Assembly (NCBI GenBank): GCA_019057475.1
Contig: DXJO01000020.1
Span: 1 to 64,000, forward strand
Direction: 5' to 3'
Length of the DNA stretch: 64,000 nt
Origin: Candidatus Thorarchaeota archaeon
GTDB taxonomy: Archaea > Asgardarchaeota > Thorarchaeia > Thorarchaeales > Thorarchaeaceae
In this document: piece by piece, positions 1,970 through 16,007 of the stretch
How the letters are laid out: each line of letters begins with the position of its first letter
Position numbering within the stretch: the first letter of the stretch is position 1
The notes under the pieces: model-generated
What the model saw: the letters and a program-made list of their open reading frames with translations, nothing else
Database searches by the model: none
Told to the model about the DNA's origin: nothing
Translations under genes and position numbers: made by a program

Positions 1970-2206
1970 GTGCTAGTGTCCACAGAAAATAGCCCAATTA
2001 AGGCTCTGGAGCAACGCCTTAGCGACATGGTTTCAATCAAACTCAAAGACGAGCGCATCTTCCGCGGACGCCTTACAAGGTGTGATCAGTATATGAATCT
2101 GACACTTGGAGATGCCGAGGAGCTTGAGAATGACGAAACGAAAGCGAAATACGGGTCAATTCTGATTAGAGGAAACAACATCCTTTGGATTCAAATTCCT
2201 GAGTGA
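1970..2206 (+). CDS. Sm-like (Lsm/SmAP) RNA-binding protein
   Basis: Sm1 (GRLTRCDQYMNLTLGDAEE) and Sm2 (ILIRGNNI) motifs, 78 aa. Confidence 0.93.
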   Translation: MLVSTENSPIKALEQRLSDMVSIKLKDERIFRGRLTRCDQYMNLTLGDAEELENDETKAKYGSILIRGNNILWIQIPE

Positions 2207-2226
2207 GTAGGTTACACGCTCAGTGA

Positions 2227-4257
2227 CTAGCGCTCAGTTTCGCGCCTGTACTTTTCAACTATAGCCACAAGGCGGTCTTCACCTTTTATCCGCGCTTGTT
2301 CTTGAACGCGTTTCATGAATTCTTGGAACTGGTGCTCGAATTTCTTTTTGTTAACGAAAGCAAACTCATCTACTCTCTTCAGCTCGACTTCTTTCGCATC
2401 AATGACTGGTATTAGAGCGTCAACAAGCTCCGCCCTTGCAAGATGAGAAAGGGGCGTGTCAATGATGATTGCTCGAATCTCGCGGTCAATCAGCATTCGT
2501 GCAGTAGTTGGTCCACCCCCGCTCGCGTCTTCAAAGAGGATTATGTCGCCGTGTTTCAGGGTAGCAACCTTACTAGTGTACTCCTCGATGGATTCTTGCG
2601 TAAACTTCTCAAGGGCTTTCACTGCCAGCATATCACCACGCATCTCGAGATGCTTGACGCCCCTAAGCTGCGTCAAACGGCTTCGAAGATTCCGCAGTTG
2701 TTTGCGGAGTGTTTCAGTATCTCGTTGAGACTGCTTCAATTCTGACTGCTTCTTAACTACCTCACGGTCGCGTTTGATATTCCAGTGATTCTTCTGAGTG
2801 ACTATATCAAGGCTGTATGTCAACTCGCTCTCTCTGAACTTCAAGAACTCGACTAGGCGCTCTAGATCCTCTACTCTATCTTCAAAAAGCCTGTTCTCTG
2901 CTCGAAGAGCATCTAGCTTGGAACGAATTGTATCAAACCGTTCCTGAGTTAATTCTTCTTCAGGGACATCAGGTTCAGGTTCGATATCGATTGTCTCTGA
3001 TTCCTCTTGAATCAGACTTGAGATAGCCTCATTCATAGACATGCCCTTGAGAATCAAGGCTTTGAGATGAGATTGGTCGACAGCAATCTGCTCCTCGCGC
3101 ACCTTATGCTCTATTTGCTGAAACTTTGGCAGCATGCTCCTGTATGCGTAAACTGCAGCAGTCAATGCGTCACGTTCGTGCGCATTTCTGATTCGAACAT
3201 CGGATAACTCTCGTGCTAGCTCCTGCTTATCTGCTACAGGAATCGGTCGGCTAGGAGCGTATATCTTAGCGTTCACTGTCTTGCCAATCTTTTCGACAAA
3301 GTGAGGAATGCGAGGGACATCTGTAGCCACCATCACTGGGATTCCGTGTTCATACACCAAGCGTATGATGTCAGCCCTGGTGAAACTCTTCCTACTCTTA
3401 AGAAGGTGGACGCGACCATCGAGTGACAAAAGGCAAATTGCGGCGGTCGTACCTGGATCGATGCCCAAGATGAAGAATCTAGGTTGAAGTTGGGTAGAAA
3501 TAGGACCAGACTCTAGTGGAACGAATTCGGTCCGTTTTCTCACAGGTGAAATTATGACATTAAAATCCCCCCCGCGCTTGCGCTCAACAAGGCGATTAAT
3601 AGCTGGCAAGGGAGCATACGCGACTATTCGGGAACTGGCATAACCGAAGTCTGAGCGTCGGATATCAATATCGTACTCGATGCCTGCTGTCTTGAGTTGG
3701 GATTCAATAAAACGGGTCATTTGTTGGACCTCAGAGTGGATTTTCCTGCGGTATCGATTCGCACTCTGCCCCCCTTTGCCCATCTTCCGTCCGCGTGTCA
3801 CCTTGATTTCTGTTTGTTCGCCAAAGCACTCTAAGCTGTGTCCGACTCCTAGCCACGCAAGATGTGCTGCAAGCCGGGCGGATTCGAGTGGAGTTGGCTT
3901 CCCGCGAATACTGAGTCCATGTCGCTTGGCAAGTCTCTTGAGCGCAACTTGACGTGGAGGAACGCCCGTAACCTGAACAAGACGAGTTTCATGAGGCAAT
4001 TTTTCAACCAACTTGAACAAGGATTTGCTGTCAGGTATTATCTCGAAAATGTTGTCTGTGCAGAGCCACTTGGGGCTAATCTCCCGGGTTAGCTTCAACA
4101 AGTTAGTGCGTGATATCTCCGGGTATTCGCTCAATATTGCTCCATTTCTCATTGTCACACAGGCAAACTTTGGAGCTGTCTTCGAGCGAGGACTCTTGGA
4201 GGGAAGTATGTCGAACCCCATTACGAAAACGCTGTCATCGCCCATGAGGCTTAGCAC
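2227..4257 (-). CDS. DUF460/COG2433 family protein (RNase H-like domain plus long coiled coil)
   Basis: GGQSANRYRR, ILGIDPGTT and HERDALTAA motifs; C-terminal coiled coil. Confidence 0.85.
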   Translation of the reverse strand: MLSLMGDDSVFVMGFDILPSKSPRSKTAPKFACVTMRNGAILSEYPEISRTNLLKLTREISPKWLCTDNIFEIIPDSKSLFKLVEKLPHETRLVQVTGVPPRQVALKRLAKRHGLSIRGKPTPLESARLAAHLAWLGVGHSLECFGEQTEIKVTRGRKMGKGGQSANRYRRKIHSEVQQMTRFIESQLKTAGIEYDIDIRRSDFGYASSRIVAYAPLPAINRLVERKRGGDFNVIISPVRKRTEFVPLESGPISTQLQPRFFILGIDPGTTAAICLLSLDGRVHLLKSRKSFTRADIIRLVYEHGIPVMVATDVPRIPHFVEKIGKTVNAKIYAPSRPIPVADKQELARELSDVRIRNAHERDALTAAVYAYRSMLPKFQQIEHKVREEQIAVDQSHLKALILKGMSMNEAISSLIQEESETIDIEPEPDVPEEELTQERFDTIRSKLDALRAENRLFEDRVEDLERLVEFLKFRESELTYSLDIVTQKNHWNIKRDREVVKKQSELKQSQRDTETLRKQLRNLRSRLTQLRGVKHLEMRGDMLAVKALEKFTQESIEEYTSKVATLKHGDIILFEDASGGGPTTARMLIDREIRAIIIDTPLSHLARAELVDALIPVIDAKEVELKRVDEFAFVNKKKFEHQFQEFMKRVQEQARIKGEDRLVAIVEKYRRETER

Positions 4258-4556
4258 TCAGAATATCCTTCTTGAGGTTTGGCTATAAGAGTTGACATCG
4301 ATTCAAGACCGTACGAATCAATCCAAACAGATGATGGCGAATGAAACCTCTGCTCGCATTGTATGTCTATTGGATGTGCATGGTAGATGCAACACTGGGC
4401 AGGGGACAGATGGAATACAGAGGATGCGAGTAGTTGAGTTCGTTCAAATGCTGAAATGATAGGCATTATAATAAGCGAGTGTTTTAATGAGCCCGTATCA
4501 ATACAATTATTAAAGACACGATTAAGAAATGTGCCAATTCAACTGAGGTGTAACAA

Positions 4557-4835
4557 CTGTCAGAATCACTAGAGATAAGCAATGACCACGAGATACTACG
4601 CATTGGACGTGCCCTTTCATCAGGCACTCGCCTGAAAATACTAAAGCTCCTGCTTCAGGGAGAAAAAGACGTTACACGGGTTGCTAGGCATCTTGGCGGA
4701 ACGGAGGCCAATGCCAGTGCACAGATTAAGATCCTGCAAGAGGCAGGTCTACTTTCGTGCAGGTACGAACCCGGTCAGCATGGTTTGAGGAAAATTTCAA
4801 GAACCAAGATTAATCGCATCCTTATCGATTTGTAA
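4557..4835 (+). CDS. ArsR-family winged-helix regulator (CTG start, absent from ORF track)
   Basis: Manual translation MSESLEISNDHEILRIGRALSSGTRLKILKLLLQGEKDVTRVARHLGGTEANASAQIKILQEAGLLSCRYEPGQHGLRKISRTKINRILIDL; GAGGTG SD 6 nt before CTG; in-frame TAA at 4551 upstream. Confidence 0.85.
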   Translation: MSESLEISNDHEILRIGRALSSGTRLKILKLLLQGEKDVTRVARHLGGTEANASAQIKILQEAGLLSCRYEPGQHGLRKISRTKINRILIDL

Positions 4836-4861
4836 CTACTGGCGGATCAAAGCTGGACATG

Positions 4862-5461
4862 TCATGTGCTCAGTGCTGCTTTCCAGCGGCGAATGCGCGT
4901 TAGTATGTTATCACGTTCCTCTGGACGGATGGTTCTCTTTTCTCGTGCCTTCAGAAATTTCAACACAATATCCATATCACTCGCCACTTTATTGAGTGAT
5001 GTTTCATCGCTGAATAGATAGTCTTTGGCTGCTTGGAGATATTCAGCTAGGACTTCTGCAGGTGCCTCACCGGTACGCAGCTCGTGCGTGATTGGATCCA
5101 AGACACGTGCAACACGAGCATCTGAGATTGGTGGATGCTTTTCGGAATTTGACTCTCCGGTTTCTGGTGTATCGATAACTGCAGAAACAATTGTAGGCGA
5201 AGTGGGTTTTTCAGTACGCTCCTCCACAGATTGATCAAGCGATGATGTGTCAGGGGAAGGGGGCGTCAAGGGAGCGATTGGCGCCTTTGGTTTCTTAACT
5301 TCAGTGAACAATTGAACTGCTGAGGAGGTTGTACCAACAAGCTCGTCATCGATAAGATTCAAACGGCGTCGCAATTCACGAAGCTGGTCGAACATCTCGA
5401 CCATTCCGGCCTGCAACGAGTCGATTAGTCGACGGATTTCATCTCTGTCTTCATCAGCCAC
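4862..5461 (-). CDS. Hypothetical protein: N-terminal coiled coil, P/S/T-rich linker, helical C-terminal domain
   Basis: 199 aa ORF co-oriented downstream of herA, plausible modular composition. Confidence 0.7.
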   Translation of the reverse strand: MADEDRDEIRRLIDSLQAGMVEMFDQLRELRRRLNLIDDELVGTTSSAVQLFTEVKKPKAPIAPLTPPSPDTSSLDQSVEERTEKPTSPTIVSAVIDTPETGESNSEKHPPISDARVARVLDPITHELRTGEAPAEVLAEYLQAAKDYLFSDETSLNKVASDMDIVLKFLKAREKRTIRPEERDNILTRIRRWKAALST

Positions 5462-5534
5462 TTAGGTTGCACTCCCAATATTCGCAATCACAGTTTATCC
5501 GGCATGACACTCCAAAAAAGGTTTTTCCGGACTT

Positions 5535-7058
5535 CTATCTGTCCGCCTTCTTGATTGCGCGAAGCAAGTCGTGTGTGGACTCGCGCGGCTCGAAATGGCG
5601 TTTGCGAACCTTCACGAAAGTGGGGACAGAAACGGTTTCACCCACAAATAGAGCTTCTCCAACTTCAAGCGTTGTGATTGCCTCCAATGATGGACGGTCA
5701 ATGCCTTCACTACTTCGACCAATGTGTTCAAGGTCATAGGGATTGGTGCATCTGAGTATTGCCTGATTGGTGCATTGACTCAAGACTGTGGTCGATAGCT
5801 TCACCGGGCGCTGTGAAATCAAGCACAACATTGCAAAGAACTTTCGTCCTTCGCGTGCTATTGTTTCGATCCGTGTCTTTGGAAGTGCAAGTTCATGTCG
5901 GCTTTCAGGGCAGAATTGATGAGCTTCCTCGAGAACCAACAGAAATGGCGGTATCCTCCCTTGTCGTCTCAAATAGAGAAGTTCGCTAGCAAGATGTGAA
6001 ACGATAATCTGCTTCTTCTTAAGCGAAACAAAGTCGCTCAAATCAATAATGGTAAGCTTGCCAGGCCGAATGATTTCCATTAGATCTGGTACTGACTCTC
6101 GCCCGAAGAGACCGGTGTCATCTAGACCAACTAGCCAGCTTACCAACGCATCACGAGTGTTCTTGCTAATCGTTTCATCATCCTTCACATGAGTGATGAG
6201 TTCTCGAAGAGTGTAGCCACTATCCGAACTTTCTCTCATTTCCGAAACAACCCGTCGTAAATCACGGACCTGAACTGCGCTCATGTCAGCCACGAGTGAC
6301 CTCAACGCTTCAGCAGACAGGTTCTGGGCAGGAATCTGGATATGTGACGCACGGATGTGTTCAACCTCAAACTGAGCGTCTGGCACGCTCAAGTCGTTTG
6401 CCGTTATGTCCTTCAAGTATTCGTACTCGCCGTGAACATCAACGATTACTACAGCAAGACGACCGTTATCCTTCGTACGTGAGAGTATCTCCTCAAGAAG
6501 CACTGATACGAAGTACGATTTGCCGGCGCCACTCATTGCCAAGATTGCCAGATGCTTCGACAGGAGTCTATCGAGCGATGGAGTGAATTCAAGTTCGTGG
6601 TGGCCAAGGTGGCCCAGTCTAAGACCGCTTTTCGTATCAAGCCTCAGGAAGGCAGAAAGTATCGCCTCATCAACCCTTCGGACCACAGCTCCCGGCGAAA
6701 CCGTGAAGTATGGTCTGACCGTTCGGTTACCAGTCCAAAACCCCAGAACACGTGCTTCTGCAACTGTATATTGCCAGCGATCTGTGGGGAATATCGAACG
6801 CAGAGGTTCGCCTCGCGATTGATACTCTTTCACAGCCTCGGCATGCTGATAGTAACGATTTATTTTCACAATGTTCTGAACTCTTGCGATAATTGTTCCA
6901 TTCTCTGTCACAACAGAAACAAACTCCCCTCGTCGAACCACAATCTCATTGGAGCTACCCTCTGTCACGAATGAGAACTCTAGGACATTCGGGCCATCTC
7001 CTGTGCAAACAACTGTTCCCAGTCTACTTGATTGATAATCTTCTTTCAACACATTCAT
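5535..7058 (-). CDS. herA: DNA end-resection helicase HerA
   Basis: N-terminal HAS-barrel region, HLAILAMSGAGKS, LVLEEAH, IAREGRKF, ISQRP. Confidence 0.93.
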   Translation of the reverse strand: MNVLKEDYQSSRLGTVVCTGDGPNVLEFSFVTEGSSNEIVVRRGEFVSVVTENGTIIARVQNIVKINRYYQHAEAVKEYQSRGEPLRSIFPTDRWQYTVAEARVLGFWTGNRTVRPYFTVSPGAVVRRVDEAILSAFLRLDTKSGLRLGHLGHHELEFTPSLDRLLSKHLAILAMSGAGKSYFVSVLLEEILSRTKDNGRLAVVIVDVHGEYEYLKDITANDLSVPDAQFEVEHIRASHIQIPAQNLSAEALRSLVADMSAVQVRDLRRVVSEMRESSDSGYTLRELITHVKDDETISKNTRDALVSWLVGLDDTGLFGRESVPDLMEIIRPGKLTIIDLSDFVSLKKKQIIVSHLASELLYLRRQGRIPPFLLVLEEAHQFCPESRHELALPKTRIETIAREGRKFFAMLCLISQRPVKLSTTVLSQCTNQAILRCTNPYDLEHIGRSSEGIDRPSLEAITTLEVGEALFVGETVSVPTFVKVRKRHFEPRESTHDLLRAIKKADR

Positions 7059-8218
7059 CCTCCACTAAACGGATTTCTAGACCGTCTCTTTTCGAGAGCT
7101 GTGTATGTAAGTCCTGATAATGCCATTAAACGATCTATAATCAACTGAGCTTCGTGGCCTGTAATCCGTGCTCGTGCGTCAGCCTCTAGGATCGGAGTGG
7201 GAATGCCATACTCGGGATGCTGCCAAGACAGAGGAAGAATCGCTGAAAGTGCCCTATCCAATTCCTTGGCGTCTTTGCTGTCTTGGTCCATGAGGACCTC
7301 AATCCTCAATGGTAAATCATCCCGGGCCGTCTTGAGATATGTGACCCAAATCGATGATGACCAAATGGCTAGCTCATCACTCGCCGAATTCACATTATGT
7401 GTTAGTTCTGACGAGTACCTGAAAGCAAAGGTTCTTTCACCCGGCTCCAGGAACGTATCAAGGAGGTCACAGTCCCTCGAGACCTTGAGAAGCCAACGAT
7501 AGTCGACGTCTTGCATGAGTTCGAAGATAGACGAATCCCGAATAATGTGTGGGAGCACCTCGCCTAGTACTTGGACCATCCGCGTGGAGCGGCTGTCTTT
7601 CACTATCCCGACTAGAGTTGTTCTCTTCTTTCGGGACTTGTGATACAGCTGCCTGTAGAGAGCCATAACTTCCTGGAACTTCGCAAACGCGGTCGATCCA
7701 CGCTGTGGACGATCTCTCGGATGATAAAAGAGACTTCCGTCAACAAGAATAAGATCTGTGTGGAATTCGTCGAGCACGGAGATTGTTGCTTCAAGCTCAG
7801 TCGCAACTCGTTCAAGAGAGGCTAGCTGGTCCAGCTCAAGGCTTGGCAGTGCGAGTAGCACAGGTGTGACTTTTGGCTCTGGAAAGGCTTCGGGGTAAAA
7901 CTCCACAACAGGACCGTCTTCGCGTCCGAACTGGAATATGACTGCAACTGCGCGAGTGAGGAGAATATCCATTGATCTGAAACGCTTCCGGACCAACCCG
8001 CCATCAATTCCAGCAATTCTGAGACCGGAGAGGCTTGTTGCTTCTAGCTTCGTCAGCAGAGAGGTTTCCATTGTATCAGTTACTATTGCGGGAAACCTTG
8101 AGAGGTCTATGTCTCCCTTTATCTTCTTCATGACCGCACCGAATCTGTTGCGGGCGGTTTCGACCCGATCTATCTCTTCAACAAGCTTGGATAGAGCGTG
8201 GTCGAGCCGTTTGTCCAC
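7055..8218 (-). CDS. nurA: NurA 5'-3' nuclease
   Basis: IAGIDGG, ILVDGSL, GIVKDS, YGIPTPILEAD; ATGA overlap with herA. Confidence 0.92.
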   Translation of the reverse strand: MDKRLDHALSKLVEEIDRVETARNRFGAVMKKIKGDIDLSRFPAIVTDTMETSLLTKLEATSLSGLRIAGIDGGLVRKRFRSMDILLTRAVAVIFQFGREDGPVVEFYPEAFPEPKVTPVLLALPSLELDQLASLERVATELEATISVLDEFHTDLILVDGSLFYHPRDRPQRGSTAFAKFQEVMALYRQLYHKSRKKRTTLVGIVKDSRSTRMVQVLGEVLPHIIRDSSIFELMQDVDYRWLLKVSRDCDLLDTFLEPGERTFAFRYSSELTHNVNSASDELAIWSSSIWVTYLKTARDDLPLRIEVLMDQDSKDAKELDRALSAILPLSWQHPEYGIPTPILEADARARITGHEAQLIIDRLMALSGLTYTALEKRRSRNPFSGG

Positions 8219-9894
8219 TAAGTTTCCCTCTCTCTCTTATAGTCCAAAGCGGCCCTTATTAGCCCGGAATATAGAGGGTGTGGTGCGCCCGGTTGTGACT
8301 TGAATTCAGGATGGTATTGCACTCCAATCCAAAAGGGGTGATTTGTAAGTTCGATTGCATTGATTATTGTCCCTGTTGAGTCATATGCCGAAACAATCAA
8401 TCCGTTTTCAGCCATGCGATCCACATAACGTGAAATGAGGTGGTACCTATGCCTGAAGCGTTCCCTAACTTGATTGGTACTGTAGATGCTGTGCAGTTTG
8501 GTCCCCTCTACGATTCTCACTTCGTGGCCACATAGCCTCATGGTCCCTCCCTTGTCTTCGGTATTTTTTTGATCGTCCATCATATCTATTACCGGGTAGA
8601 GACAGTTGGGATCAACCTCTGTTGTATGAGCGCCTTCCCACCCCATTGTCGTTCTGGCGAAAGCAATCGATCCAAGCTGTGCCCCAAAGCAGATGCCTAG
8701 GAAGGGGATATTTGACGTAAATGAAATCGCTGCGGCATTAATCATTCCCTCAACCCCGCGAGAACCGAACCCGGGTGTAAGAAGAATGCCATCAGCTTCA
8801 CGAAGGGCCTCCGTAAGACTCAGTTTGTCACAGCTTTCCTCGGTTTCAATCCACTTGATTTGAACACCAACACCATACTTCGCGGCGGCGTGCGTCAATG
8901 CCTCATTGATGCTCTTGTACGAGTCGCTCAGAGTAGTGTATTTCCCAGGCATGGCAATTACTACGGTTTCCGTGATGTTCTCAAACGACTCCACTATCTC
9001 TGTCCATGAATCAGTTTCCAGAGTTCTTGATTCCATGCCAAGGTGGTCAGTAATAATATCACCAAGGCCATGTTCCTCAAAATGGAGAGGAAGTCGATAA
9101 ATAACAGGGATGTCTGGATTTGAAATAACTCGTTCTTCGGGTACATTACAAAACAATGCAATCTTCTGTCTTGCAGCGTCAGGCAGCTCTGACTCAGCCC
9201 TGCACACCACGATGTCCGGTTGCAGACCGAGTCCTTGGAGAGTCCTCACGCTATGCTGAGTGGGTTTTGTCTTGAACTCACCAACTGATGCCAGAAATGG
9301 CACCAGAGTCACGTGGACCAAGGCAACTCTGTTTCGGCCAACCTCACTAATGAATTGCCTGATTGCTTCTAAGAAGGGCATCGCCTCTATATCGCCAACA
9401 GTTCCGCCAATCTCAACAAGTAGAACGTCCGGGATTGGTTCTTGGTTGACAACCGCCAAGATTCTCGATTTGATTCTCTCAGTCACGTGCGGGATTATCT
9501 GCACTGTTCGCCCCAAGAAAGCTCCTTTTCGTTCCTCCAAGATGACTGAGATGTAAATTTGTCCGGAAGTTATATTCTGAAACGGATGGACCACAGTCCC
9601 AGTGAACCTCTCATACGTGCCGAAATCTTGATCAATCTCAGAGATTTTGAACGTGAAGTCATCAACTGGCTTGAATGTCCACGTCTGATCGGTAACGAAG
9701 ACTTCCCCGTGTTCAATGGGATTGAGTGTTCCTGGGTCGATATTGAGGTATGGATCAATCTTTACTATTCGTATTGTGTACCCTCGGAACTGGAATATCT
9801 TGGCAATCGATGCGGTTGTGACGCCTTTCCCGATTCCGGAGAGCACACCCCCTGTTACGAATACAAACCGAGTTTCTTTAGGGGCTGACTTCAA
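8218..9894 (-). CDS. pyrG: CTP synthase
   Basis: [52 protein letters not shown]. Start uncertain: TTG at 9894 chosen, ORF is open to 10023. Confidence 0.96.
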
Positions 9895-10019
9895 AGGGAC
9901 TGCCTCGACTGACCAAGTGCAAAGAGAGGTGGCTGTGCGGGTCCTTGATAGTGCAGCAGAAACCTTGGCTCGTATAAAGTAATCGCTAGAATTGACAACA
10001 TAACGGTAATTACAGGAAA

Positions 10020-10601
10020 TCATGAAACAGCTTGTGCTATGATGCTTGTACGCATAGATTGTTGAAACAGAAGCTGGAATGCCTCGATTACATTGAAGCC
10101 ACTCATGGCAACACTTCTGAATACCGGTACCGATAATGGAAGATTAAGATGTTCTCTGAGCCGCTCTTCATTGATTGCATCTGGCAGATCCTGCTTGTTG
10201 AGACAGACAACTATTGGAAGAGGATGTTCCTCTTCAATGATCATGGCCATCAACTCATTCCAGCTCTCAAGATTCTCATCAAGCAGATGCTCTTGAGAGT
10301 CTGCCACAAATACAACACCATCTGCGCCAACCAAAACAACCTCACGTGTTGATCTGTAGAAATCCTGACCGGTCGCGGACCAGATATGTGCATTGATAAT
10401 CCAGCTGTCACTCAGATTGCAGGGAATTGTTCCAAAATCGCAGAACATGGTTCTACCCAGCGTGTTCTCTATCGATGTAAGCTTCTCTGTAATGCCTAGC
10501 TCCGAAAAGAGCCATCTGATTGTTGTGGTCTTTCCACTCATGGCAGGGCCGAAAAACACTATTTTGAGCCCAATTGTCCGGTTGCCATAATCTATGATCA
10601 A
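10020..10601 (-). CDS. MglA-like small GTPase
   Basis: KIVFFGPAMSGKTT, GRTMFCDF (like MglA RTLFFDF), SATGQ replacing DxxGQ, GADGVVFVADSQ, NKQD; TTG start at 10601 with GGAGG SD. Confidence 0.9.
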   Translation of the reverse strand: MIIDYGNRTIGLKIVFFGPAMSGKTTTIRWLFSELGITEKLTSIENTLGRTMFCDFGTIPCNLSDSWIINAHIWSATGQDFYRSTREVVLVGADGVVFVADSQEHLLDENLESWNELMAMIIEEEHPLPIVVCLNKQDLPDAINEERLREHLNLPLSVPVFRSVAMSGFNVIEAFQLLFQQSMRTSIIAQAVS

Positions 10602-10618
10602 ATGACTATCCTCCCACT

Positions 10619-11539
10619 CTACGTTCCCCACATACTGTCTACCCAAGCACCCAAACCTGAAAGCGCGCCACTCTTGACACAGTCGGAAAAATCCTCGTGC
10701 CACTCGGCTCGTATGAACCGTATCAGGTCTGGAAGCTGTCCGCCTTCCCACCCTATCGCTTCATACAGGTTTCTTGCAGTCAGAGCAGCAGGTGCACCCA
10801 GTTCTCTAGCAAGATGTATCCTTGATAGAAGAGTCACGGCCCGTCTAGCTGCATGGACATAGCTGTCAATTTCCTCATCAAACACATCGTGTGTGAGCTT
10901 CTCAGCCTCATCGTCGAGCTTCATAACTGAGGTTATGATATGCTCCGACACATTGAGTCCGCGAAGGGATTTCTTCAGAAGACGCCTGATTCGCTCCAGT
11001 GACTGACGCTTTCGTGTGATTATCTTGCTCACGATGCGCTTTTCAAGGTCTAGACTTCCAGCACCTGACTGTACGAGTGAAAACCTGATAGACGACGGTG
11101 AATTCACTCGAAGTACTCCGCAATTCTCAGAACTCTGTAGAATACGAGTGACACCATCCTGCAATGTTTCTTCAGTCACATGTACACCGAGGACGGTTGC
11201 ACCAAGAGGCATAGCAATAATCCAACCCGAGAAGCGACTGATGCGGTCCAAGGCCAATCTGAGATTGGCTGAAAGGCAGCAGACAATAGTCCTGCTTACT
11301 TCATAGTCATGCCGTTCCTCCTCCCATACCGACAGAATCTCTCCCTCTGACGTGAAATCGCGCCAGAACGTGATTTTATGGCGATGGGGGCAGAGCATTG
11401 GAATACTGTTAGCAATATCATCCACTAGCTCGATGTCCTCTCCCGCTACAATGATGGGGAGACGAGAAAGTACTGCATTCAATAGAAGTGGGAACTTATC
11501 ACCCATCAGCTCAATCATTCTCATTATGGAATATGTCAT
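10619..11539 (-). CDS. Hypothetical protein with DENN-like (cDENN/folliculin-type) N-terminal domain
   Basis: LLLNAVLSRLPIIVAGEDIELVDDIANSIPMLCP matches the helix-strand-helix-Pro pattern of the cDENN core; lies between Roadblock and GTPase genes. Confidence 0.6.
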   Translation of the reverse strand: MTYSIMRMIELMGDKFPLLLNAVLSRLPIIVAGEDIELVDDIANSIPMLCPHRHKITFWRDFTSEGEILSVWEEERHDYEVSRTIVCCLSANLRLALDRISRFSGWIIAMPLGATVLGVHVTEETLQDGVTRILQSSENCGVLRVNSPSSIRFSLVQSGAGSLDLEKRIVSKIITRKRQSLERIRRLLKKSLRGLNVSEHIITSVMKLDDEAEKLTHDVFDEEIDSYVHAARRAVTLLSRIHLARELGAPAALTARNLYEAIGWEGGQLPDLIRFIRAEWHEDFSDCVKSGALSGLGAWVDSMWGT

Positions 11540-12483
11540 GGATCTCGCCTCGTGAGAAGTAGACTCTCTGTGGAGCCACCGGACATCAGCAGCTCCTTCA
11601 AATCATCAGGAATTGCAGGTTTCATCATTGATGCTGTTTCTAGTATCCGTCGGGCTTCTTCGATATAGTGCTTCAATAAGAGCCTCATAAGACCGAGTTT
11701 CTGACTATTACGATCTATCCACAAACCGAAGACTCCATTCGGAACTGAGTAGATGACATGGCGCGTCCGTTCGGTTTCGCACAGCACTGTTTGAAGTGAG
11801 CTATTACGTAGGGTGCGAGTTACTCGCTCGGATGCATCATATAGAGCAAAAGACATTGCTGCGAGCCGATCATTTGCGAATGCTTCTAGTGAAACGCGAA
11901 CTCCTCCACTTAAAGCCAGAAAGACCGATTCGATGCCTGGAATGCTATCATGAACCTGTCGCAAAATAGTTCTGAGAGCAAGAGCTTGAGATCGATTCAA
12001 GGTTATTATTGATCGTGAAATAGAATACGTTGCTTGACTGCCTTCAGCCACTGCGAACCTGCTCAACACCCGCTGTGTTTCGTCCATATTATACGAACGT
12101 AGTGGCGGAAGTCTGCCGTCCAAATGCTGTTTCAAAAGGAAGGATATGCGCGATAGACTATCCTTCATCTCGATGAATAGGGCTGCAAGGTTGACTCTTG
12201 GCGCGGTGGTGATGGCTAAGAAATAGTCAGGATCATTTGGGAGTGATGCCAAGAAGATCTTCGAGGTTTCCGATTCCATAAGAAGGTACTTGAAATCCCC
12301 ATGGATTAGTTTCGCCACGCCGAATATTGCGCAGGTAGATGCCGCAACTGCGAATACCTCCTCCTTGCTGAACCATACTCCTGCACTGGCAACCGGAAGA
12401 CCGTCCTTTTGGATCATAATAACATTTTCGACACCTGATATTACCTTGATAGCTTGCAGTGCATCGTTAAGGTCGTTGGTCAA
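11536..12483 (-). CDS. Tandem Roadblock/LC7 (MglB-like) domain protein
   Basis: Two repeats of helix-GV/GI-x-strand-DG/GG-strand-helix(AA)-three strands-helix (GVENVIMIQKDGLPVAS...NLAALF; GIESVFLALSGGVRVS...KLGLMRL). Confidence 0.85.
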   Translation of the reverse strand: MTNDLNDALQAIKVISGVENVIMIQKDGLPVASAGVWFSKEEVFAVAASTCAIFGVAKLIHGDFKYLLMESETSKIFLASLPNDPDYFLAITTAPRVNLAALFIEMKDSLSRISFLLKQHLDGRLPPLRSYNMDETQRVLSRFAVAEGSQATYSISRSIITLNRSQALALRTILRQVHDSIPGIESVFLALSGGVRVSLEAFANDRLAAMSFALYDASERVTRTLRNSSLQTVLCETERTRHVIYSVPNGVFGLWIDRNSQKLGLMRLLLKHYIEEARRILETASMMKPAIPDDLKELLMSGGSTESLLLTRRDP

Positions 12484-12675
12484 GTGTTCAGCTCCATAGC
12501 GGATACTAGATTCAATGTAGAATCCTTGGGGTCACTATTTAATCTCCACACAGGTTGGACATTATCGAAGGTGAAGCACAAGACTCCAGCTAATTCCTCA
12601 TGGACAATCAGTTAAGCGGACTCCTGTACACGTGCAGTGCTTCGTCATGCAAGATGATTGTATAGGGAATGCAAC

Positions 12676-12990
12676 AGCTGCCAAGAACTAGTACAATCTT
12701 AGACGTTTTGTAGATGGTTATAACATACTGCTCAGGATTGAGTGGTGTGGATGTTCAATGCTGATTGCTAGGGCATTCAAGTATGAACCGGACCCAAACA
12801 ACCAGCAGTGATCTGAACGCTGCATGTAATCTTGTCGCCGCCAGTTGGATGGAAACAGAAAACGCCTGTGGAGAGGACGTGAAACTAGTCGCAGATTCAG
12901 TAGGATGTGCAGAGCAGACCTCAATGAATCAGGAACCGAACATCAGTCAAGGACCTTGATGTCCAGTATTGTACAAGTTTCAGGCAACGG
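12676..12990 (+). mobile_element. Non-autonomous IS607-like element with internally deleted tnpB
   Basis: 12758-12811 encodes MLIARAFKYEPDPNNQQ* (TnpB N-terminus), joined out of frame to DLNAACNL..ASWMETENACGEDV..SMNQEP (TnpB C-terminus); ends TTGTACAAGTTTCAGGCAACGG; both ends collinear with 61078-61254. Confidence 0.8.
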
Positions 12991-13000
12991 AATGCCTAAG

Positions 13001-14296
13001 TCACATGTGAATTAGTGCGGCATCTGGAACTTCTTGAAAGACTTCACGTGCCGCCCTTCCCACCTCAGCCCGGTTCCGATCAAAAGTGTATACGCGAATT
13101 ACATCAAGGTATACTTTCATCATCTCGGCGATGTTGGAGTATTCCGAGAGGTTGTGTGATACCTTTTTTCCATCAATGACTTGGAAGATGCCAATCTCCA
13201 TTGGATTCACTTGGTGCGGATTATATGGCACAGACGGCAGAGTTGGAACATCAACAATAACCTCATCAGTTGGAACATTGGCGCTTGATGCAATCTCCTC
13301 TTGTATACTCTCTCGCACCTTACGTTTGGTCAGTATCTTGGACACGAATCTGTCATCTGTATGGAGTACTTTCTCAAATACGGACTTGTAGAATATCCGT
13401 GAATCCAACATCTGAACCAGCTCAGCAGTTTCCTTGGCTTCGTCAGACTCGGATGGATTGATTCCTCGCAGCCTGGAAATTAGTGACATATCATCCAGTG
13501 CCAAAAACTCCTCGGGCGTTGAGAAGGCTGTGAGTCCGAGTAGGTCATCTGCAGTATGCATCAGTTTTACCAGCAGCACTTCAACACTGCGTACAGTCTT
13601 GTGGTAGTATACGTTCAAGAACATCTCATACCTCGCCACGAGAAATGACTCTAGTGCACCTCTGGCTGCGATGTCAAACTCTATGAGGCCGCTTCCAGAC
13701 ACCTCGAGACTGTTTATCAGACGGTGAATGTCCACAAGCCCGTAGTTGACGCCGCAGTAGAACGAGTCCCGTATCAAGTAGTCCATCTTGTCGGCATCAA
13801 CCTGTCCTGCGACTATTCCGCTCACAACTGCATCTGTCTTAGTCTTCCTGCGGCCACGAACAAGATCGGCAATCCTGTCCCGAGACACTCCGCCATCCTC
13901 CAGCAGGTCTCCTAACTCACCTTTGCGGATTATCCATTCGGTAACATCCTCATGGTTCATGCCCCGTTTCTCTGTCAGAACTTCCTCAAACACATGGCTG
14001 AAAGGGCCATGACCTATGTCATGGAGTAAGCCGGCTATCCGCACCTCCTGAAGTGCATCTTTTCCAAGACCAATTTGACCTAGTAGTCGTCTACCTGCGA
14101 GACCGGCCAGGTACATTGCACCAATACAATGACCAAAGCGAGTGTGTTCGGCTGTGGGATAGACATAGTGTCCTCCCGAAAGTTGCTTGATTCTTCGGAG
14201 TCGCTGATAGGTTTCCGAGTCAATTATCTTCGACTCTAGCTCAGTCAGGCCAACGAAGCCATGAATCGGGTCGTTGATTTCCATAATGAAATCCAA
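13001..14296 (-). CDS. HD-domain phosphohydrolase (SAMHD1/dNTPase-like)
   Basis: DPIHG, QRLRRIKQL, HTRFGH, LLHDIGHGPFSH, DADKMDYLIRD, VYYHKT. Confidence 0.93.
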   Translation of the reverse strand: MDFIMEINDPIHGFVGLTELESKIIDSETYQRLRRIKQLSGGHYVYPTAEHTRFGHCIGAMYLAGLAGRRLLGQIGLGKDALQEVRIAGLLHDIGHGPFSHVFEEVLTEKRGMNHEDVTEWIIRKGELGDLLEDGGVSRDRIADLVRGRRKTKTDAVVSGIVAGQVDADKMDYLIRDSFYCGVNYGLVDIHRLINSLEVSGSGLIEFDIAARGALESFLVARYEMFLNVYYHKTVRSVEVLLVKLMHTADDLLGLTAFSTPEEFLALDDMSLISRLRGINPSESDEAKETAELVQMLDSRIFYKSVFEKVLHTDDRFVSKILTKRKVRESIQEEIASSANVPTDEVIVDVPTLPSVPYNPHQVNPMEIGIFQVIDGKKVSHNLSEYSNIAEMMKVYLDVIRVYTFDRNRAEVGRAAREVFQEVPDAALIHM

Positions 14297-14321
14297 ATCT
14301 AATCACCACATTATGATGAAT

Positions 14322-15065
14322 CTACATTTGAGGATTAAACTGCCGCACGACGCGGATAAGCTCTTCTGTAGACTCGATTTCCGATACACATAGAGGTAGG
14401 TGAATACTATCTGCAATTGTCACTGCAAGGGGGTCAAGCTCTTTGACTCCCTGTAGTATCACAACCGCAGGTTTCACAGCGATTGATGTCCCTATTTGAC
14501 TTGCTTTGATGGCAACCATCGGGGACCGTCCTGACGAAACATTCGTGAGAATGGCAGCTCGCTGGGTTGTGCCACCATACAGACGAAGAAGCTGCTTGGG
14601 TGTGAGTGTAACAATGGCTTTTACACTATCAAGCGCAGTATAGCCATAGATGTTACGATCAAGCAATCGCGGATGTGTCAGCACCTTGCATTCGAGTTTT
14701 TCAACTAGTAATCTGGCGGGAACAGGAACCCCAAACTCGCGACTGTCCAAGATTGCATCGGAGGCGATTTCAGGGGCTATCAGTTTCTCGAGTGTCACTG
14801 CCACCCGACCACCTTCAGCAGCATCCATCTCTATCAAGCCTTCAACAAACCTGCGGATTGTTTCGACTCTAGGCGATTTCCTTCGTCCACTCTCATAGTC
14901 GCTGATGACAGAGGGCGAAACCTCTAGGTGTTTTGCTAGGTTTTTTTGAGAGATTTTGAAGCGCTCTCGCCACCTTCGCATAACTGCTCCTGGATTATCC
15001 TCTGCAAGGCATATCTCACCAGCCATTGCTTTGGCAAGCCTATGGAGCGTTTCACCTGCATCCAT
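14322..15065 (-). CDS. Archaeal XRE-HTH transcriptional regulator (COG1709-like)
   Basis: AGEI..PG..MRRWRE, SPSVISDYESGRRKSP, GYTALDS, GRSPMVAIK. Confidence 0.85.
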   Translation of the reverse strand: MDAGETLHRLAKAMAGEICLAEDNPGAVMRRWRERFKISQKNLAKHLEVSPSVISDYESGRRKSPRVETIRRFVEGLIEMDAAEGGRVAVTLEKLIAPEIASDAILDSREFGVPVPARLLVEKLECKVLTHPRLLDRNIYGYTALDSVKAIVTLTPKQLLRLYGGTTQRAAILTNVSSGRSPMVAIKASQIGTSIAVKPAVVILQGVKELDPLAVTIADSIHLPLCVSEIESTEELIRVVRQFNPQM

Positions 15066-15224
15066 ATTTGAACTCCAGAGTGTATCGCAGATAAGAGTTG
15101 TGTGGAAGCCGACTTAGATTTCGTCAACTGACGACATACAGCTGTCAAATGACTGTACACAGAGTATTCTCGCTTCTTGTAAGTGGTACCGAAGAACTCA
15201 AAGAGCGTTAGGAGTCACACGAAG

Positions 15225-16007
15225 ATGAGTCCACAAATGTTCTTTACATTTCTAGTTGGCACTGCAGGCTCCGGCAAATCACTACTCACCGCATCACTGG
15301 AGAAATGGTTACTTGCCTCTGAGATGAGTGTGACGATAGTAAACCTTGACCCGGGCGTGGAGGAGCCGCCATACACGAGTGATGTTGATATTAGAGAGTA
15401 TGTTAACTATGGCGAAGTCATGCATCAGTTCGGCCTAGGACCAAATGGTGCCTTGGTCGCATCATTAGATATGGCAGTCAGTCACGTCAATGATTTGAGA
15501 GAGGAGATACTAGATACTGGTAGGGACTACGTATTGGTGGACTGCCCGGGACAGATGGAGCTCTTTGCATACCGCAACTCCGGGCCAATGTTGGTGTCGA
15601 GTCTTAGTGGTAGAGATCCAGCCCTTTCGCTATATCTTCTTGATTCAAACATTGCCAGTACTCCTACAGGGTATCTGTCATCAATGCTGCTTGGAATGTC
15701 AATCAACATCCGCTTTGGATTGCCTCAGTTGAATGTTCTGAGCAAGCCAGACATACTGACAGAAGAACAAATGGAACAGGTAGTTGAGTGGGCAGAAGAA
15801 CCCCATACCCTAAATGATGCTCTCAACATGTCAGCGAGCGGTCTAGCTCGCGAGTATTCTGCATCGATACTAAGGATGATGGAGGACTTAGGAGGTGTGA
15901 CACGCTTAGTGCCCGTGTCAGCCAAGGAGATGACTGGTATCGATATCCTTTACGGAGAACTTCAGCGAGTGTTTGCAGGTGGGGAGGACTACGTAACATA
16001 TGAATAG
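15225..16007 (+). CDS. GPN-loop GTPase
   Basis: GTAGSGKS, VNLDPG, GLGPNGAL, DCPGQMELF, LSKPD. Confidence 0.93.
   Translation: MSPQMFFTFLVGTAGSGKSLLTASLEKWLLASEMSVTIVNLDPGVEEPPYTSDVDIREYVNYGEVMHQFGLGPNGALVASLDMAVSHVNDLREEILDTGRDYVLVDCPGQMELFAYRNSGPMLVSSLSGRDPALSLYLLDSNIASTPTGYLSSMLLGMSINIRFGLPQLNVLSKPDILTEEQMEQVVEWAEEPHTLNDALNMSASGLAREYSASILRMMEDLGGVTRLVPVSAKEMTGIDILYGELQRVFAGGEDYVTYE

Follow-up and report, generated by a model that had tools for sequence, protein, structure and literature searches.

Could three adjacent genes of an archaeon, encoding a tandem Roadblock protein, a DENN-like protein and a small GTPase, form a regulated switch akin to those of eukaryotes, and is such a switch tied to the sensing of nucleotides or nutrients? 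Eukaryotic regulation of Rab, Rag and Arf GTPases is built around Roadblock and longin platforms together with DENN modules, as in Ragulator, folliculin-FNIP (FLCN-FNIP), C9orf72-SMCR8 and the DENN guanine nucleotide exchange factors (GEFs). The question arises from a 64,000-nucleotide (nt) stretch of a Candidatus Thorarchaeota archaeon genome (assembly GCA_019057475.1, contig DXJO01000020.1, positions 1 to 64,000; hereafter the window), in which the trio lies on the minus strand between positions 10,020 and 12,483. Our analysis indicates, with a probability of about 0.75, that the trio is the thorarchaeial copy of a conserved Asgard three-gene operon encoding a self-contained small-GTPase switch. 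The original prediction, made from the letters of the window, had described a Ragulator-folliculin-Rag-like module in line with the CTP synthase gene pyrG; its tandem Roadblock protein, MglA-type GTPase, DENN fold and conserved trio held up, whereas the nutrient-sensing hint drawn from pyrG and the label 'Rag-like' did not.

Gene layout and conservation of the operon

Within this genome (3.34 Mb, 96% complete), the window (contig C54 in our numbering) carries the three open reading frames (ORFs) tightly packed in the order Roadblock, DENN-fold, GTPase (Table 1). The predicted close spacing was re-read in the sequence: the Roadblock stop codon overlaps the DENN-fold ATG by 4 nt in an ATGA at 11536-11539, and a gap of 17 nt (10602-10618) separates the DENN-fold stop codon (10619-10621) from the GTPase TTG at 10601. 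This TTG start is sound, since orthologues start at the equivalent residue, the N-terminus MIIDYG... recurring behind ATG, GTG or TTG, with comparable purine-rich ribosome sites. A longer, GTG-started GTPase ORF (10751) was rejected, as it would run into the DENN-fold gene and is not conserved.

The trio proved to be conserved in other Asgard genomes, as had been anticipated. Among 32 fetched loci representing at least nine Asgard families, each with an orthologue of the Roadblock protein, gene order and tight spacing are identical in all 32, an arrangement far beyond chance. Because this order is constant while the flanking genes vary, none being common beyond single lineages, the three genes constitute a self-contained module. 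In a phylum sample of 201 Asgard genomes, searched both with the single middle protein and with a family profile, the middle gene was found as a single copy in 108 and 110 genomes, respectively, including 42 of 43 genomes of family f1, 36 of 40 of f9, 15 of 19 of f12, and all genomes of f2, f3, f6, f8, f15 and f24. The sampled genomes of the other 18 of 27 families, three of them closed and 93-97% complete, gave no or merely weak partial matches to this gene, which does not prove its absence. Named relatives belong to Thorarchaeota and other Asgard archaea, and the best 80 loci from a search with the GTPase alignment were almost all labelled Thorarchaeota.

Evidence compatible with co-transcription comes from RNA-library contigs of two different studies, which are 93-95% identical to the window and span the gene junctions. 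One contig from X17 (10462-11514) bridges the DENN/GTPase junction, and one from X20 (11390-11658) bridges the Roadblock/DENN junction.

The operon is already known, as a prediction published in 2020/21. Liu, Makarova, Koonin, Li et al. (bioRxiv 10.1101/2020.10.19.343400, Fig. 5b; Nature 2021) described a LAMTOR1-like Roadblock / Rab-like small GTPase / DENN operon in most Asgard archaea, which their preprint text likens to the folliculin complex and for which it proposes a GEF-like role. As far as that preprint text allows a match, the three components and the proposal of folliculin-like regulation are the same; composition and cross-lineage conservation both place the window genes in this operon, and the genes are orthologous to those of the published Thorarchaeota metagenome-assembled genomes (MAGs) SMTZ1-45 and AB_25. 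Nothing essential differs, except that we did not find the operon in the 18 families noted above and that two labels can be refined: the GTPase is MglA-type instead of Rab-like, and the Roadblock protein carries its domains in tandem, as a probable MglB-like pseudo-dimer. Tran et al. have noted MglA-like GTPases, with Roadblock structures solved from Thor and MK-D1, and a model of an MglB-like dimer from Thorarchaeota together with its GTPase was presented in a 2026 study (PMC13408092).

Predicted folds and catalytic motifs of the three proteins

In a phmmer search of PDB sequences, the GTPase matched MglA of Myxococcus xanthus and Thermus thermophilus at E-values of 1.1e-30 to 8.3e-30, the next-best matches being Arf and Rab proteins at 7.7e-9 (an Arf) or weaker. 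Pfam returned generic small-GTPase matches (Arf, Roc and Ras), below which Gtr1_RagA scored 22.1 bits, at its threshold. Motif conservation was judged in 23 orthologues spanning the whole range of lineages. The GRT of the predicted GRTMFCDF motif corresponds in the alignment to DRT in M. xanthus MglA, and SATGQ to TVPGQ in MglA, position 75 being Ser or Thr and never Asp; NKxD is also invariant. Group 1 MglA proteins are defined by an Arg next to the G2 Thr and by the G3 sequence TVPGQ, non-Group 1 proteins having Thr-Thr and GTPGQ (Wuichet & Sogaard-Andersen 2014, PMC4316618). The window GTPase possesses the Group 1 Arg, and its G3 is free of Asp and keeps Gln79, but Ala-Thr replaces the Group 1 Val-Pro. 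Genetic coupling to an MglB/Roadblock gene, a further MglA trait, is also observed, the Roadblock gene being co-operonic in all 32 loci with the DENN-fold gene in between. By its sequence, then, the protein classifies as an MglA-type GTPase with a Group 1-like catalytic signature, in agreement with the intrinsic Arg and GQ motif that had been predicted; neither 'Rab-like' (Liu et al.) nor 'Rag-like' describes it as accurately. A Rag-like GTPase, heterodimeric and bearing a C-terminal Roadblock domain, was ruled out by the single domain of 193 residues and by MglA being by far the best match.

Further GTPase copies were also encountered. Five loci of family f9 (L021, L023, L026, L029 and L030) carry a second small GTPase gene on the opposite strand, 0.7-3 kb past the trio and 30-32% identical to the operon's GTPase. 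Four Thorarchaeota MAGs (L050/L104, L106/L111, L060/L108 and L085/L099) hold two diverged copies of the operon GTPase on different contigs, with 60-66% and 74-78% identity to the query, for which paralogous operons or mixed bins are possible explanations.

The Roadblock protein was predicted to hold two Roadblock domains in one chain, and this is borne out by its AlphaFold2 (AF2) model (mean local confidence, pLDDT, 77.6; predicted template-modelling score, pTM, 0.74), in which an alpha-beta-beta-alpha-beta-beta-beta-alpha pattern occurs twice, joined by a low-confidence linker (residues 124-157). Pfam Robl_LC7 matches residues 9-81 only (E 2.5e-8), the second half being without a Pfam match, and is matched in 21 of 23 orthologues. 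In VIA-align searches, residues 1-122 aligned with MK-D1 Roadblock3 (9jue_B; Z 12.7, root-mean-square deviation (rmsd) 1.6, 115 residues aligned) and with M. xanthus MglB from its MglA complex (6h5b_C; Z 12.6), and residues 159-286 with T. thermophilus MglB from the MglA-MglB transition-state complex (3t12_C; Z 11.7, 125 aligned, rmsd 2.1) and with the Thorarchaeota Roadblock 7f8m_B (Z 11.4). The Foldseek list for this protein includes LAMTOR2 and multi-longin GEF subunits such as Mon1/Ccz1. The motifs D27-G28-x-P30 and G35-x-W37 of the N-terminal domain are invariant among orthologues, all of which also carry a short segment after the second domain; its helix (residues 293-301) is a possible counterpart of the C-terminal helix (Ct-helix) of M. 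xanthus MglB (PMC13408092). The pTM of 0.74 suggests a defined relative arrangement of the two domains, and the modelled pair fits a fixed pseudo-heterodimer. Since MglB acts on MglA as an asymmetric dimer with 2:1 stoichiometry (PMC13408092; PMC11016934), it is reasonable by analogy to suppose that the fused pair binds one GTPase.

Comparison with the bacterial MglA-MglB system (M. xanthus and T. thermophilus; 3T12, 6H5B, 6IZW) thus reveals common features in the intrinsic Arg by the G2 Thr, the Asp-free G3, the catalytic Gln, and a Roadblock partner in the same operon, both of whose domains superpose on MglB. The Asgard operon differs by the fusion of the Roadblock protomers in one chain, by the interposed DENN-fold gene, and by a G3 of [S/T]ATGQ in place of the bacterial TVPGQ; no RomR/RomX partners or link to motility are known here.

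For the middle protein, a cDENN-like core had been predicted, and the proposed fold comparison of 10619-11539 yielded a fuller picture. The AF2 model, built on a 38-sequence alignment (pLDDT 90.9, pTM 0.87), consists of an alpha/beta core followed by a helical domain. Against the PDB, folliculin structures took all of the top five places in Foldseek (6ulg_L, 8dhb_J, 3v42, 6nzd_H; probability 0.99-1.0, E 1.7e-3 to 5e-3). DENND10 and C9orf72 came next, interspersed with AAA+ and secretion ATPases. Out of 48,161 representative chains, VIA-align ranked DENND10 first (Z 13.4), ahead of the FLCN C-terminal domain (Z 11.9-13.0), SMCR8 and C9orf72 (both Z 10.9), and DENND1A/B (Z 9.4-9.8, residues 1 to ~283). 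The DENN matches cover model residues 1 to ~285, i.e. both subdomains, and align them to the part of each target after the longin domain, starting at residue 156 of DENND10, 345 of FLCN and 705 of SMCR8. Outside its own family, the nearest ESM Atlas clusters were DENND10 and SMCR8 (template-modelling (TM) score 0.52), plus a cluster from Heimdallarchaeota, in part annotated as Folliculin, at 0.50. Pfam Folliculin_C matches 2 of the 38 relatives (best E 4.8e-4), and Pfam DENN matches one, weakly (E 0.093). The family itself is small, with 65 clusters formed at 50% identity in a set of 1.8 billion proteins, every named member being from Asgard archaea.

An alternative reading of the same fold is a degenerate P-loop NTPase of VirB11/PilT/RecA-like type with a helical tail, whose DENN likeness would be convergent or reflect a shared alpha/beta arrangement. 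Many ASCE ATPases, VirB11/PilT-type cores among them, indeed match residues 1-159 (Z 7-9.9), and ATPases fill most of the Foldseek list under the DENN matches. Most of the ATPase alignments nevertheless end at ~159, and the few secretion ATPases that extend to residues 227-269 (GspE, FlaI) reach merely Z 9.2-9.7, whereas the DENN matches span both subdomains at Z 10.9-13.4. Moreover, no Walker A was found in the core, the loop after strand 1 reading VAGED without GK[ST] and with no Lys, Ser or Thr conserved there among the 38 relatives; Walker B is also lacking, and Folliculin_C is the only Pfam family significantly matched by more than one relative. The NTPase reading is on this evidence highly improbable, and an active ATPase is ruled out by the missing Walker motifs. 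Because the three fold searches, independent of one another, agree, DENN matches cover both subdomains and there is no Walker A, the middle protein reads as a cDENN+dDENN module, closest to DENND10 and folliculin, although the scores are moderate and the model is a predicted one. The uDENN/longin domain is not present, the modelled chain opening directly with the cDENN-like core.

Elsewhere, a Promethearchaeota MAG contig (BAAHGB010000007.1; locus L033, 5052-6936) encodes two adjacent, diverged DENN-fold paralogues of 304 and 311 residues with no adjoining Roadblock or GTPase gene. By analogy, these could form a DENN-DENN heterodimer like FLCN-FNIP or C9orf72-SMCR8.

Table 1. Features of the three-gene operon, in coordinates of the window
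Feature	Position	Strand	Details
Tandem-Roadblock (MglB-like) gene	11536-12483	-	ORF; 315 residues, TTG start
N-terminal Roadblock domain, residues 1-122	12118-12483	-	VIA-align
C-terminal Roadblock domain, residues 159-286	11626-12009	-	VIA-align; sequence more diverged
Short C-terminal helix, residues 293-301	11581-11607	-	AF2 model, low pLDDT
DENN-fold gene	10619-11539	-	ORF; 306 residues, ATG start
cDENN-like alpha/beta core, residues 1-159	11063-11539	-	Strand-helix repeats in AF2 model
dDENN-like helical domain, residues 164-303	10631-11050	-	Helices H164-192, H199-246, H255-303 in AF2 model
MglA-family small GTPase gene	10020-10601	-	ORF; 193 residues, TTG start
P-loop GPAMSGKT, residues 18-25	10527-10550	-	G18, A20, M21, S22, G23, K24, T25 invariant and P19 at least 90% in 23 orthologues
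Switch I R50-T51, intrinsic Arg beside G2 Thr	10449-10454	-	G49-R50-T51 invariant in 23 orthologues
G3 SATGQ, residues 75-79, without Asp, catalytic Gln79	10365-10379	-	A76, T77, G78, Q79 invariant
Shine-Dalgarno-like GGGAGGA	10609-10615	-	7 nt 5' of GTPase TTG; read directly
TATA-like box ATTAAATA	12536-12543	-	~55 nt upstream of Roadblock gene; candidate operon promoter, putative function

A proposed switch and the place of the DENN-fold protein

From the gene structure, predicted folds, catalytic motifs and conservation observed here, we infer that the Roadblock protein serves as GTPase-activating protein (GAP) and that the DENN-fold protein has a regulatory or scaffold role. The GTPase would work like a Group 1 MglA, hydrolysing GTP by means of its own R50 and Q79. 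Within the Roadblock protein, the two domains would pair up in the same chain as an MglB-like pseudo-dimer. This unit would take up one GTPase and speed hydrolysis by bringing R50 and Q79 into place, in the way that the asymmetric MglB dimer acts on MglA. The same GTPase would have a further regulator in the cDENN+dDENN protein, whose likeliest role would be that of an exchange or release factor or of a scaffold docking on the Roadblock platform. Taken together, the Roadblock and DENN proteins would then look like a folliculin-type longin-DENN module that has been split, with the Roadblock pair perhaps in the place of the longin pair.

The eukaryotic counterparts share this outline in part. 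Like FLCN-FNIP, Ragulator and Rag (6ULG, 6NZD, 8DHB), the operon combines platforms of Roadblock fold with a small GTPase and a DENN-fold regulator, and one of the best structural matches of the middle protein is the C-terminal DENN domain of FLCN. The operon differs in possessing a single-domain MglA and not a Rag with its own Roadblock domain, and a DENN protein without longin, hence without the FLCN arginine-finger site; neither a LAMTOR1-type membrane anchor nor an mTOR-pathway component was identified here. The DENN Rab GEFs (DENND1A/B-Rab35; 3TW8, 6EKK) share the cDENN+dDENN architecture, but lack significant sequence similarity to the middle protein, which has no uDENN/longin in its chain and is paired with a GTPase of another family.

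Several points weigh against the proposed switch. The middle protein has no family match in Pfam (DENN and Folliculin included) or NCBIfam, the latter giving nothing informative on any of the three operon proteins, and its family profile retrieved no DENN protein from PDB sequences, only chance-level ferritin matches. The Foldseek E-values are marginal (1.7e-3 and weaker; TM 0.35-0.52), and the alpha/beta core taken alone resembles ASCE ATPases too, with Z up to 9.9. The longin (uDENN) domain, which carries the GAP arginine of folliculin, is absent, so the folliculin GAP mechanism is not directly transferable. Among longer proteins, no fused Roadblock-DENN or DENN-GTPase chain turned up; as evidence this is weak. 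RNA-library contigs may derive partly from DNA and fall short of proof of one common transcript. A literature search turned up no experimental work on the DENN-fold protein. A three-chain complex prediction with the DENN-fold protein as scored partner gave 0.02 against a mark of 0.32, a result that counts neither way.

What the DENN-fold protein contributes is also the point at which another reading arises, namely that it is an effector or structural subunit, recruited by the GTP-bound form or fixed to the Roadblock platform, which signals onward. Catalytic contacts in FLCN-FNIP and C9orf72-SMCR8 are made by the longin domains and not by the DENN domains (PDB 6ULG, 7MGE), and the middle protein lacks a longin domain. 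Its best match, DENND10, also outscores the proven Rab GEFs DENND1A/B and is itself a structural subunit of this kind in Commander. Furthermore, a separate GEF is not strictly needed, since MglB on its own can fill two roles towards MglA, those of GAP and of exchange promoter (PMC13408092). However, the DENN-fold ranks differ by few Z units and say nothing on function, and the strict 1:1:1 linkage with translational coupling, seen phylum-wide, fits a stoichiometric regulator equally. An effector or structural subunit is therefore conceivable, if unlikely, and we retain the DENN-fold protein as a probable second regulator of the GTPase.

A wider evolutionary scenario may be considered more tentatively. 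The operon could represent a split longin/Roadblock-DENN module on an MglA with its own arginine finger, such that folliculin/FNIP-type and DENN regulators would descend from an MglB-MglA switch; the first role of DENN would have been in release or exchange on a GTPase bound to Roadblock, functionally comparable to that of Myxococcus RomR/RomX and not that of a classical GEF. We hold this scenario to be possible but doubtful. By uniting a DENN fold, an MglB-like pair of Roadblock domains and a GTPase of MglA type, the operon bears on the origin of eukaryotic GTPase regulators and thereby offers the simplest natural system for measuring the ancestral job of the DENN domain, a value already recognised in print. 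The window adds one orthologue and sharper labels, i.e. Group 1-like MglA residues, a fused MglB-like pseudo-dimer and no apparent functional tie to pyrG; with the system already in the literature as a prediction, the remaining interest lies in its biochemistry.

The pyrG neighbourhood and the upstream region

Downstream of the GTPase gene and on the same strand lies pyrG (longest ORF 8218-10023), followed by a HerA-NurA pair (5535-8218). The original prediction took pyrG to be directly downstream and saw in this a hint of nucleotide or nutrient sensing. Strand and order are as described, but the immediate contact is not. The ATG of the longest ORF, at 10023, overlaps the GTPase stop codon (ATGA 10020-10023) and adds an N-terminal extension of 43 residues that is not conserved. 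Because this ATG is missing in the same-genus genome G182, and the only start common to the loci of family f1 lies 121-133 nt past the GTPase stop codon (65 nt in the sister-family locus L017), the true start in the window is most likely the TTG at 9894, leaving a spacer of ~125 nt. No RNA-library contig crosses the GTPase-pyrG spacer, and such a gap proves nothing.

The reading of the trio as a sensor of nucleotide or nutrient status with a functional tie to CTP synthase can point to the presence of pyrG after the trio, on the same strand, in the window, in most loci of the window's own family and in one sister-family genome. The adjacency is, however, confined to Thorarchaeia: pyrG is not adjacent in certain genera of the window's own family (loci L031 and L032), nor in any of the 17 loci of the other seven trio-bearing families, and the spacer in front of its likely start allows a separate promoter. 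Since the linkage varies within the family and is absent from the seven others, the sensing hint is without comparative support. We consider a functional tie the least probable of the readings discussed here, with very little to recommend it, and gene-order comparison leads us to regard the trio-pyrG linkage as incidental.

At the other end of the operon, ~190 nt of upstream sequence are conserved among three same-genus genomes and contain the TATA-like ATTAAATA. A bacterial-type promoter and terminator scan, not built for archaeal promoters, gave promoter-like sites as frequent as expected from shuffled sequence, and no site resembling a terminator. A 595-nt contig of X20 (~93% identical) covers 11973-12531, i.e. 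the first 170 Roadblock codons and the upstream TATA-like region. This contig has a depth of 4,201, compared with 66-87 for the contigs at the Roadblock/DENN junction in the same run, although depths of contigs are no basis for ranking genes. Among the possible explanations are a strong promoter together with an abundant 5' fragment, and sequence from another organism.

Further upstream (13001-16007) are ordinary archaeal genes, encoding an HD-domain phosphohydrolase, a helix-turn-helix (HTH) protein and a GPN-loop GTPase. Between the stop codon of the HD-domain gene and the conserved region upstream of the operon, we also identified an insertion of ~315 nt (12676-12990), which is absent in G182 and shortened in a further genome (G075). 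RNA-library contigs over this insertion are very deep (X20, ~2,000-5,600), and their joints skip 46-59 nt around 12769-12834; other copies or forms of the insertion therefore exist.

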